From sequence record ON470587: a DNA stretch of 20,345 nt, one strand, 5' to 3'. The notes under the pieces are model-generated. The model saw nothing but the letters and a program-made list of their open reading frames with translations, was not told the DNA's origin and ran no database searches. The position numbers were made by a program, and so were the translations under genes. The DNA comes from Escherichia phage vB_EcoS-611R4. This document shows positions 12,906 to 14,849 of this stretch, piece after piece. Numbering within the stretch: the first letter of the stretch is position 1; each line of letters opens with the position of its first letter.

Positions 12906-13868
12906 GTGAGTTCAGGTGCAAAGGTTATCTCGGCATTTATCCGGGAGACAGTTGCAGGCACTACGCCAGCAAGTGGTGACTGGAGTTTATTAAAACGCAC
13001 AAGCTGGGGAGTAAAACCCACCCAGAATAAAGGCGAAAATAATGAGATTGGTGGCTCCCGGATGGCTCAGGGGGCGACGCCTGGCACTGTGGATGTCGGC
13101 GGTGATGTTGGTACCAAATTTCGCTGGGGTCAACATGATGATTTTCTTGCATCCTGTTTCGGCGCGGAATGGTCAGGCGATTCTCTGACAATGGGGAATG
13201 AGCGAATAACATTTTCTCTGGCGACCTATGCGTCCGATGTCGGAATTGCCTCTGTCGTCAGAGGAGCGCAGGTTGGCTCATGGAAAATGCAGATCCCTAA
13301 CGACGGCGATATTACAGCGACCGTAACCTTTGCCGGGCTGGGCTGGGAAACAAAGGCCGATGATACGAATTTTATCAAAGGCAAACCTGTGGATAGTGCA
13401 GGAAAGTTACGCTATTCGTTTAAGGAGGTTTCAGCAGTAAGCCTGAATGGTGTTGCCGGAGGTAACGGTTTTTGTATCGACAGTTTTGATATTCAGTTCG
13501 ATAACAAACTCCAGACACAGCGTTGTATCGGGACTGGCTCGCCTTATGCAGGAGCAAATATTCCGACTACTTTTACACCGTCCGGTACGGTGACGCTTTC
13601 ATGGTCTAAAGCCGCGTGGGAAATCTGGAGTAAAACACTGACTGGAGAAACAGTTCCGTTCAGCTTCACGCTTTCGAATGGAGAGGGGGCATACACTTTC
13701 AGTTTCCCGAAGGTTCAGGTGTCAGGTGAATGGCCTGATGGGGGTAATACTGACATTATCCAGGTTCAATTGAGCATTACCGCAGCAGATGAAGCACCTA
13801 CGATAACCAGAAAAAAATGCTCCCCGACTGCCGTGATCGCAAAAGCCAGTGCTGATGCGATTAGTTGA
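12906..13868 (+). CDS. major tail (tube) protein
   Basis: ORF 12906..13868 (320 aa); GTG start with AGGAGG 6 nt upstream; Gly/Thr/Ser-rich beta-type composition; directly upstream of the chaperone pair and tape measure gene. Confidence 0.7.
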   Translation: MSSGAKVISAFIRETVAGTTPASGDWSLLKRTSWGVKPTQNKGENNEIGGSRMAQGATPGTVDVGGDVGTKFRWGQHDDFLASCFGAEWSGDSLTMGNERITFSLATYASDVGIASVVRGAQVGSWKMQIPNDGDITATVTFAGLGWETKADDTNFIKGKPVDSAGKLRYSFKEVSAVSLNGVAGGNGFCIDSFDIQFDNKLQTQRCIGTGSPYAGANIPTTFTPSGTVTLSWSKAAWEIWSKTLTGETVPFSFTLSNGEGAYTFSFPKVQVSGEWPDGGNTDIIQVQLSITAADEAPTITRKKCSPTAVIAKASADAIS

Positions 13869-13880
13869 TTTTCCGTTATT

Positions 13881-13907
13881 CCCCCTGTGGTACTGCACTA
13901 CAGGGGG
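13881..13907 (+). promoter_or_regulatory. stable stem-loop after the major tail gene (possible attenuator / RNA stability element)
   Basis: CCCCCTGT ... ACAGGGGG perfect 8-bp inverted repeat with 11-nt loop; no T-tract follows. Confidence 0.3.
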
Positions 13908-13916
13908 ACGCATTGA

Positions 13917-14378
13917 ATGAGGTTATGGATGTTTATTCTTAATCAGAAAATTATCATCGGTGGAGAACGCTGGTTTACGCCAATGAAGGACTTAAAACCT
14001 GTAGACGGGTTAAAACTGTTGGTGGCAAGCAGCGATAACGATCAGTATCGCTCCCGTAATGCATTAATCCGTCGTCACATTGAGAAAATGGATGCCAGTT
14101 TGCACGTCGGAACGAAGGAGTTTGATATTTCAAAGGTTTCCGAGGTAGATTCTGTTGATGATTTACTCATTGATAATGCTGCTCGTTATCTGCTGAAAGA
14201 CTGGAAAGGGGTTGGTGAACTGGTTAATGGTGCTGAGGTTGCACTGGAATATACGCCAGAACGAGGGATCGCGCTGCTTAAGCAGAATCCAGAGTTGTAC
14301 TGGCAGATCCTTGCAGAAGCAGCCAGCATCGCCCAGGGTAAAGAGCAGCAGAAGCAGGATACGATAAAAAAGCCATAG
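13917..14378 (+). CDS. tail assembly chaperone (lambda gpG analogue)
   Basis: ORF 13917..14378 (153 aa), acidic, located between the major tail and tape measure genes. Its last codons contain the slippery heptamer A_AAA_AAG, and a downstream -1-frame ORF is open from 14342. Alternative start ATG 13929. Confidence 0.7.
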   Translation: MRLWMFILNQKIIIGGERWFTPMKDLKPVDGLKLLVASSDNDQYRSRNALIRRHIEKMDASLHVGTKEFDISKVSEVDSVDDLLIDNAARYLLKDWKGVGELVNGAEVALEYTPERGIALLKQNPELYWQILAEAASIAQGKEQQKQDTIKKP

Positions 14379-14686
14379 CCGCCCAGCGGTGGTTATCGGA
14401 GTTCGGGGGAGAAAGGGGGGAAAAGGCAAGATGGAAGCGAGAAAAACTCAGGTTGCCACCGATACCGGAACCAGAAATAGACCCGGTGCTTAAGGAATTG
14501 TTGTACGCCTATTCGGTAATATCCCGTGCCCGACGTTATGCTGGAATGACCGGGGTGCCTTTGCCTTTATCTCTGACAGAGATAAATGAATATTTAGCCA
14601 CTCATCCGGTATTGATTGAGCGCGATGAGTTTGAAGCAGTGATCTTTGCACTGGATGACCAGTATTTTCAGGATCAGTGTGTGTAG
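13917..14686 (+). CDS. tail assembly chaperone frameshift fusion product (lambda gpGT analogue; -1 shift at 14366..14372)
   Basis: The -1 frame relative to the G-like ORF is open from 14342 to the stop at 14684..14686 (ORF track shows its distal part, 14453..14686). The overlap with the G-like frame (14342..14378) contains A_AAA_AAG. Predicted junction ...DTIKK / AIAAQRWLSEFGGERGEKARWKREKLRLPPIPEPEID... Confidence 0.6.
14366..14372 (+). other. programmed -1 ribosomal frameshift slippery heptamer A_AAA_AAG
   Basis: In the G-like zero frame the codons are AAA(14367..14369) AAG(14370..14372), preceded by A at 14366; the same heptamer as the E. coli dnaX frameshift site. A G-rich tract (GGGGGAGAAAGGGGGG, 14404..14420) lies 32 nt downstream. 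Confidence 0.6.
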
Positions 14687-14809
14687 TTGTTAATTACGTA
14701 CACTCTGTTACAGAGATGTGATGGTGTCTTTAATTAAATCGATGATGCTCCTGGAGAAAAGCATTGCGTGGCCTCGTAATCGCTATATCTACTATTATGT
14801 CGCCTGAAA

Positions 14810-14830
14810 CCCACTTCGGTGGGCTTTTTG
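14810..14830 (+). terminator. small intrinsic terminator-like hairpin upstream of the tape measure gene
   Basis: CCCAC-TTCG-GTGGG (5-bp GC-rich stem, UUCG tetraloop) followed by CTTTTTGTTG; sits in a ~160-nt non-coding spacer (14687..14849). Confidence 0.35.
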
Positions 14831-14849
14831 TTGTCTGGAGTTTTAATAA

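Follow-up and report, generated by a model that had tools for sequence, protein, structure and literature searches.

A predicted -1 ribosomal frameshift site between YdaY and a start-less downstream reading frame in the tail genes of Escherichia phage vB_EcoS-611R4

Escherichia phage vB_EcoS-611R4 (sequence record ON470587) has a pair of overlapping open reading frames (ORFs) located between its tail tube and tape-measure genes. The upstream ORF encodes the protein YdaY, and the downstream ORF lies in the -1 frame relative to it. We analysed a stretch of 20,345 nucleotides (nt) of this record, here called the window, in which position 1 is the first letter. A slippery heptamer sits near the end of the YdaY frame, and a preliminary description of this DNA had proposed that a programmed -1 frameshift at this heptamer links the two ORFs in the manner of the G and GT tail chaperones of long-tailed phages. 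The pair (G and T for the upstream and downstream parts) and the site have the following elements.

13929..14378, + strand: gene of the G-like tail assembly chaperone YdaY, zero frame, 149 amino acids (aa) (ORF; PHROG 313; annotated in phage and RefSeq records as 'putative protein YdaY').
14342..14378, + strand: overlap of 37 nt in which the zero and -1 frames are both open (reading-frame analysis).
14366..14372, + strand: slippery heptamer A_AAA_AAG, in phase with G (codons AAA AAG; read from the sequence in X_XXY_YYZ phase).
14372..14686, + strand: T-like extension in the -1 frame after the putative slip, 104 codons plus stop (reading frame; PHROG 1189; codon periodicity).
Junction and -1 frame, + strand: predicted fusion-diagnostic peptides, namely the Asp-N/Glu-C junction peptide DTIKKAIAAQRWLSE and the tryptic peptide WLSEFGGER from the -1 frame at 14373-14452.

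The likely start of G is the ATG at 13929, which has GAGG at 13919-13922, 6 nt upstream, and corresponds to the Met at which all homologues start; the ATG at 13917 is an alternative. The G frame ends with ...GAT ACG ATA AAA AAG CCA TAG, in which the TAG at 14376-14378 is located one codon past the heptamer. Because both frames are open only in 14342-14378, any -1 shift must fall there, and the heptamer is the sole canonical slippery site of this overlap. In the -1 frame, no stop codon interrupts the stretch between 14342 and the TAG at 14684-14686. The position and phase of the heptamer and the extent of the -1 frame, as given in the preliminary description, were thus confirmed. No ATG, GTG or TTG occurs in the -1 frame until the TTG at 14453, the next one being the GTG at 14486, and the first 27 codons of T are start-free. 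The conceptual fusion is 252 aa from the ATG at 13929 or 256 aa from the ATG at 13917, which fits the earlier estimate of about 255 aa, and its junction reads ...QDTIKK followed directly by AIAAQRWLSEFGG...

The bare AAAAAAG heptamer is not rare, with 8 copies in the window versus 6.56 ± 2.6 in shuffled sequences. What distinguishes the copy at 14366 is its context. The + strand genes of the window contain 24 in-phase X_XXY_YYZ sites, and only the one at 14366 opens a long -1 ORF (104 codons, versus 33 for the runner-up). This ORF extends 308 nt past the gene end, versus 11 nt for the sole other site whose -1 ORF passes the end of its gene.

Homologous loci were then compared. When phage records were searched by tblastn with the fusion, the matches in Klebsiella, Erwinia and Pseudomonas phages were split into two frames, and those in Acinetobacter phages were T-only. 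The first set of loci (n = 102) was drawn from IMG/VR, phage records and a single genome of each species, and the second set (n = 101) was seeded from the Klebsiella and Pseudomonas branches, giving 203 loci in total; a viral contig scan seeded with the Pantoea homologue found nothing. The loci come from Escherichia, Shigella, Salmonella, Citrobacter, Klebsiella, Raoultella, Siccibacter, Pantoea, Mixta, Scandinavium, Erwinia-phage and Pseudomonas-phage lineages. At all 203 of them, the tblastn homology to G stops and the homology to T starts at one nucleotide, in the -1 relation, and this nucleotide lies at the heptamer position. AAAAAAG occupies the homologous position in 175 loci (Escherichia, Shigella, Salmonella, Citrobacter, Klebsiella, Siccibacter, Scandinavium and others), GGAAAAG in 24 (all 24 Pseudomonas-phage loci), GGGAAAG, the heptamer of lambda, in 3 (Raoultella, Pantoea and Mixta), and CGCAAAG directly followed by TAA in 1 (Erwinia phage Gungnir39).

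In an alignment of 23 sequences, the AAAG columns of the heptamer have zero entropy and the first three bases vary as a block, GTA AAA AAG (V-K-K) alternating with GTG GGA AAG (V-G-K). The change from AAA to GGG alters the residue (K to G) but keeps the heptamer canonically slippery, which points to slippage, not the protein, as the target of selection. K148, encoded by the AAG of the heptamer, does not vary among 16 aligned homologous proteins, in which just seven columns are invariant. The zero-frame stop varies from 0 to 35 codons past the site among the 203 loci. The -1 ORF is steady at 104–119 codons; the exceptions given are locus L058 (39 codons), locus L130 (31 codons) and loci L063-L067 (111 codons).

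The column variability in the 23-sequence alignment was also calculated by codon position. Upstream of the heptamer the values are 0.60/0.27/1.08, with the maximum at position 3 of frame 0, and downstream of it (14373 onward) they are 0.71/0.57/1.30, with the maximum at position 3 of frame -1. The change of coding phase from 0 to -1 falls at the heptamer, and the first start codon comes only about 80 nt later. The T peptide next to the junction is kept in other lineages although it is upstream of any start (AIAAQRWLSEFGG here, VIEAQEWLNEFGG in the Erwinia phage and AIARFQWESEWAG in the Pseudomonas phages). Such coding constraint upstream of any start codon contradicts independent initiation of T.

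These data bear directly on the possibility that the two ORFs are independent genes, the downstream one starting at TTG 14453 or GTG 14486 and the heptamer being incidental. The phage and RefSeq records do give a separate 'hypothetical protein' at 14486-14686, and the bare heptamer occurs in the window at about the chance rate. However, protein conservation and the -1 periodicity both begin at the heptamer, 27–38 codons upstream of 14453 and 14486, and no convincing Shine-Dalgarno sequence was found upstream of either codon. The T-part proteins in databases vary in length from 60 to 138 aa, which is typical of arbitrary internal starts, and 203/203 loci carry either the heptamer or a functional replacement for it. 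We consider two independent genes highly improbable.

Transcriptional slippage was also considered. RNA polymerase would stutter on the A6 run, and edited transcripts with one A extra or two fewer would encode the fusion. Homopolymeric A runs can indeed realign RNA polymerase, and such realignment has been described for runs of about 8–9 or more (PMC5009743, PMC3711429). In contrast, the run here is only 6, and the relatives with GGGAAAG, GGAAAAG and CGCAAAG have no long homopolymer, which is incompatible with such slippage, yet their sites fit tRNA re-pairing. This is the least probable of the explanations weighed here. The comparative data place the site at 14366 far beyond chance.

Several loci deviate from the common site. 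The Pseudomonas syringae phages and prophages (loci L005-L007 and L106-L126) have the non-canonical G_GAA_AAG in 24/24 loci. In this branch the 60 nt from the heptamer onward are the best-conserved nucleotide stretch, even where G is only 57% identical: 27–30 positions per 30 nt are identical in this block versus 10–22 upstream and 21–25 farther downstream. The stretch can fold into a hairpin of -17 kcal/mol (z = -1.45). The block could reflect dual coding, as frame 0 runs 20 codons further there, or an RNA stimulator that offsets the weak heptamer. In Erwinia phage Gungnir39 (locus L004, 1984-1995) the site reads GTC GCA AAG TAA and has no tandem-slippery heptamer. It is a single-tRNA A_AAG slip site with a stop codon directly in the A site ('shifty stop' type), and an alternative A_AAA_G is located 5 codons upstream, within the open -1 window. 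The IMG/VR prophage at L058 has one G fewer in the G6 run equivalent to 14415-14420, which cuts its -1 ORF to the 39 codons mentioned above; this is either decay of T in one prophage or a homopolymer sequencing error.

The protein families point in the same direction as the layout of the site. G matches PHROG 313, 'tail assembly chaperone', with E = 1e-46 (161 bits) over profile positions 15–149 of 258. The fusion matches the same family with E = 1.8e-51 (176 bits) in one stretch over profile positions 20–245 of 258, spanning the junction. For PHROG 8233, also a 'tail assembly chaperone' family, the E value improves from 9e-3 with G alone to 1e-7 with the fusion. The single-stretch match to PHROG 313 and the gain for PHROG 8233 show that the curated phage families already hold joined proteins of the same architecture. 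The T part matches PHROG 1189 (E = 5.6e-36), a family without known function. It also matches PF23812 Phage_TAC_18 below the threshold (6e-4, 20.3 bits versus a cut-off of 27), as do 5 of the 12 T homologues, weakly. PF27119.1, a precomputed label on the homologues, was not returned by the Pfam search of G, and profile searches of the PDB with G and T gave no match.

The structure of the fusion was predicted with AlphaFold2 from an alignment of 81 rows. The T part is modelled confidently, with a predicted local distance difference test (pLDDT) of 82–87 at residues ~141–250, and a helix at residues 121–159 passes through the junction. When this model was compared with BFVD by Foldseek, the top matches were full-length annotated tail or tape-measure chaperone fusions of 230–270 aa, with E values of 3e-6 for CcrColossus, 1e-4 for Loki, 2.5e-3 for K1H and 9e-3 for Seurat, and with low TM-scores of 0.3–0.4. 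Tail assembly chaperones are said to have a spiral fold, an account that goes back to Pell et al. in 2013.

On this basis, the pair would work as follows. Most ribosomes would read 13929-14378 and halt at the TAG at 14376, producing the 149-aa G-like chaperone YdaY. A minority would slip back one base on A_AAA_AAG, with tRNA-Lys on AAA in the P site and on AAG in the A site. The tRNAs would re-pair with AAA AAA, and reading would resume at GCC 14372 in the -1 frame and continue to 14686, giving the 252-aa G-T. Roles like those of lambda gpG/gpGT would mean that the tape-measure protein is coated by G, the abundant product, together with the G part of GT, and that tail tube protein is brought in by the rare T domain. 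The efficiency of the slip would set a fixed ratio of G to GT. E. coli has a single tRNA-Lys, which pairs poorly with AAG. For this reason the slipperiness is expected to come chiefly from the heptamer, and a hairpin behind it may add to the effect. Two candidate stimulators flank the heptamer.

14373..14399, + strand: lineage-specific hairpin abutting the heptamer, 11 base pairs (bp) with one bulge, candidate stimulator (folding).
14356..14359, + strand: Shine-Dalgarno-like AGGA, separated from the heptamer by 6 nt (found in the majority of the aligned lineages, though not in every one).

The hairpin has a folding free energy of -13.1 kcal/mol (z = -3.76), and none of 200 shuffled sequences was as stable. 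Its apical, GC-rich stem of 6 bp (14378-14393) starts 5 nt past the heptamer. The most frequent E. coli variant has a less stable version (-10.2 kcal/mol), and in the Klebsiella, Raoultella and Pantoea lineages the hairpin is missing. The preliminary description had suggested a check of RNA folding downstream of the heptamer. This check returned the local hairpin, which alone stands out; the fold of 14373-14460 overall is unremarkable (z = 0.08) and no conserved structure was found. An Rfam scan of 13800-14900 with E <= 10 gave chance-level matches only and none at the site. The AGGA is probably just part of CAG-GAx codons. The G-rich tract noted earlier is present (G5 at 14405-14409 and G6 at 14415-14420) and was rejected as a signal: it is ordinary Gly/Glu coding sequence, encoding F-G-G-E-R-G-E-K in the -1 frame (the conserved GGE.GEK motif of T), and it varies synonymously. 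An ORF in the +1 frame at 14431-14493, behind this Shine-Dalgarno-like G-rich tract, was also rejected, as its ATG is not conserved. We conclude that the heptamer is the probable essential element of the site, with the hairpin as at most a lineage-specific modifier.

The combination of A_AAA_AAG, which is the most slippery heptamer in E. coli, with a hairpin of -13 kcal/mol and a stop one codon further on could raise shifting. It is a speculative and rather unlikely idea that the E. coli Rac-like lineage shifts well above the ~3–4% of lambda and has a very different G:GT stoichiometry. If it were true, AAAAAAG, GGGAAAG, GGAAAAG and CGCAAAG with TAA at one fixed position would form a natural series for tuning the G:GT ratio, in which the Pseudomonas branch couples a non-canonical heptamer with a 60-nt block conserved at the nucleotide level. 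The same speculation extends to the ydaY remnant of E. coli K-12, in which the site is kept and might still yield a shifted product.

The surroundings of the pair are those of a tail module. The source of the window is a Rac-type lambdoid siphovirus or prophage. The partial genome of vB_EcoS-606R9 (ON470581) is 100% identical to the window, and several sister records are close. The gene order is trkG, a ParB-like gene, terminase, portal, a P22-like coat gene, head-tail genes and then the tail module, which consists of the tail tube gene, the ORF pair, the tape-measure gene and lambda-like M/L/K/I/J tail tip genes. The two neighbours of the pair are the following.

12906..13868, + strand: tail tube (major tail) protein gene, upstream neighbour (Pfam Phage_tube_2, 1.4e-31; RefSeq 'phage tail tube protein').
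14850..18083, + strand: tape-measure protein gene, downstream neighbour (Pfam TMP_2, 6.9e-82; TMP_4; Tape_meas_lam_C).

The tape-measure frame contains an in-frame amber TAG at 17346-17348 (...GAG AAA ATG TAG GCT CTG...). After it the frame is open for 55 codons to the ATG at 17514, where records start a second 'tape-measure protein H'. The identical tape-measure gene is flagged in RefSeq as a pseudogene with an 'internal stop'. The amber codon could mean a defective prophage, or a dependence on a suppressor or on read-through. Salmonella phage SPF_0923, which has a complete genome, carries the tape measure without interruption.

This stop codon raises the question of whether the shift site is a relic, that is, either the frozen frameshift mutation of a single gene or an intact signal in a defective, tail-less prophage. 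The 5'-truncated ydaY remnant of E. coli K-12 and decay at single loci, such as the 39-codon -1 ORF at L058, agree with such a view. However, the split layout with its slippery site is the ancestral state kept across genera, including SPF_0923 with its uninterrupted tape measure, and coding constraint persists in both frames. A random frameshift mutation would not hit a slippery heptamer in every lineage, nor would it swap one canonical heptamer for another. The relic explanation is accordingly left with a very small chance.

We read the YdaY pair as an ordinary lambda-style G/GT programmed -1 frameshift that would produce a 149-aa G and a 252-aa G-T, and assign this reading a probability of about 0.88. 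The anatomy of the site, the homology of its two parts, the conservation of its position and the switch of coding phase are shown here, and the G/GT assignment of the preliminary description is supported by position, PHROG family, layout, site conservation and the precedent of Acinetobacter phage vB_AbaS_TRS1. Several points weigh on the other side. The slip, how often it happens and how G and T share the work are inferred. The internal TAG of the tape-measure gene may mean that the tail pathway of this element is defective and the frameshift a conserved relic. No public record of the lineage annotates slippage, and the ORFs are left unjoined in RefSeq and GenBank. G has no match in the Pfam-A copy and NCBIfam used, and the Pfam scan gave no sequence-level similarity of G or T to lambda gpG or gpT. 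In the AlphaFold2 model, the G half has a pLDDT below 50 over most of residues 1–108. The consensus fold of 23 diverse site contexts has 4 weak pairs (-1.6 kcal/mol) and no covariation, and gives no conserved stimulator.

Some other sequence elements lie close to the pair. An 8-bp inverted repeat (CCCCCTGT...ACAGGGGG) at 13881-13907 is located inside the 60-nt gap between the stop of the tube gene (13868) and the G start. It is not followed by a T-run and may be an mRNA-stabilising or attenuating hairpin behind a highly expressed tube gene. A terminator-like hairpin (CCCACTTCGGTGGG then CTTTTTGTTG) is found at 14810-14833, in the 163-nt gap from the T stop (14686) to the tape-measure start (14850). 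Terminator-like hairpins are not in excess in the region, with 2 found versus 1.4 expected in shuffles. The tube gene itself has an in-phase A_AAA_AAA at 13811-13817, 16 codons upstream of its stop. The -1 frame after it has 12 codons only and closes before the end of the gene, and this heptamer is probably incidental.

The pair is common in E. coli. The 800 bases around the site are present in 1,073 of 5,426 complete E. coli genomes, whose RefSeq annotation has 'protein YdaY' for the upstream ORF and 'hypothetical protein' for the piece downstream. A literature search on ydaY in connection with frameshifting or the Rac prophage turned up no relevant paper. In K-12-type Rac remnants (L105, 2249-2852; P0016 and P0038), the truncated ydaY abuts or is fused to ynaK (ParB-like) or a terminase-small-subunit-like fragment, and the heptamer and the full T frame are intact. 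Close to the 3' end of G there are two copies of the direct repeat GCAGAAGCAG, at 14313-14322 and 14348-14357. In the E. coli allele P0001 (240 aa), a 35-nt deletion between the repeats fuses G and T in frame, and a strain with this allele would be predicted to make the fusion only. This natural in-frame fusion shows that G-T is a tolerated polypeptide.

YdaY, a named but functionally blank protein of E. coli, can now be annotated as a gpG-like tail assembly chaperone, and the small 'hypothetical protein' after it would be the T extension of the frameshift fusion. The YdaY family offers a recoding site that is fixed in position while its heptamer turns over, which is of use for training frameshift predictors and for comparing the efficiencies of heptamers. 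The value of the case lies mainly in annotation and as an example; the knowledge of the mechanism is unchanged.

The YdaY pair shares its anatomy with a known class of chaperone pairs. In the class named after Xu, Hendrix and Duda's 2004 work, G and G-T are reportedly both made at a fixed low ratio, are needed for tail assembly and are absent from virions. The features of this class found here are an ORF pair between the tube and tape-measure genes, a start-less overlapping T, an in-phase slippery site and conservation. Its best-studied member is the gpG/gpGT -1 frameshift of lambda (Levin, Hendrix & Casjens 1993; Xu, Hendrix & Duda 2004, 2013, 2014; reviewed in PMC5009743). The YdaY pair and lambda have the same order of major tail gene, G, T in the -1 frame and tape measure. 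In both, the T ORF has no start of its own, and G has, shortly before its end, an X_XXY_YYZ heptamer with A_AAG as its last four bases. No dedicated conserved RNA stimulator was found at the YdaY site, which is also a likeness to lambda. The Raoultella, Pantoea and Mixta relatives carry exactly the G_GGA_AAG of lambda at the same position. In contrast to lambda, the heptamer of YdaY itself is A_AAA_AAG, its T part is shorter (104 aa), and its G and T have no detectable similarity to the G and T families of lambda.

A remote true homologue is found in Acinetobacter phage vB_AbaS_TRS1 (TRS1_18/TRS1_19), whose record annotates a joined chaperone coding sequence. The Lys of its shift site falls in the K148 column, and the T parts are 37.5% identical over 80 residues. 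TRS1 differs in that G_GGA_AAG, at the aligned position, is the only in-phase slippery heptamer of its G/T overlap, in that the zero-frame stop lies ~26 codons past the site, and in an overall identity of ~20–30%.

The preliminary description had called the heptamer 'dnaX-type'. This holds for the heptamer, since E. coli dnaX (tau/gamma) has the identical A_AAA_AAG read by the same E. coli tRNA-Lys, but not for the stimulators. In dnaX, a Shine-Dalgarno-like element is located ~10 nt upstream and a stem-loop ~6 nt downstream. In contrast, the AGGA of YdaY is 6 nt upstream and not universal, and its weaker, lineage-specific hairpin begins directly at the heptamer (0 nt). With no Rfam match, a consensus (alifold) energy of -1.6 kcal/mol and no covariation, no stimulator cassette of the dnaX type was found at the YdaY site. 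The shifted product is the shorter one in dnaX and would be the longer one in YdaY. The Shine-Dalgarno-like element and the strong stem-loop of dnaX lead to ~50% shifting (PMC3711429).

Loki gp12/gp13, K1H, Seurat and CcrColossus resemble the YdaY fusion as its best Foldseek matches over nearly the whole 252-aa model, and differ in that the identity is 15–22% and the TM-scores of 0.3–0.4 are low, partly because of the poor G half of the model. Acinetobacter phage Loki has the A-rich heptamer AAAAAAC adjoining its G stop (PMC5313236), so A-rich heptamers in a tail chaperone gene pair are not new. The mechanism itself is textbook knowledge (Levin 1993; Xu 2004), and the novelty is confined to the membership of the YdaY family in this class and the recognition that its ORFs stand unjoined in public records.

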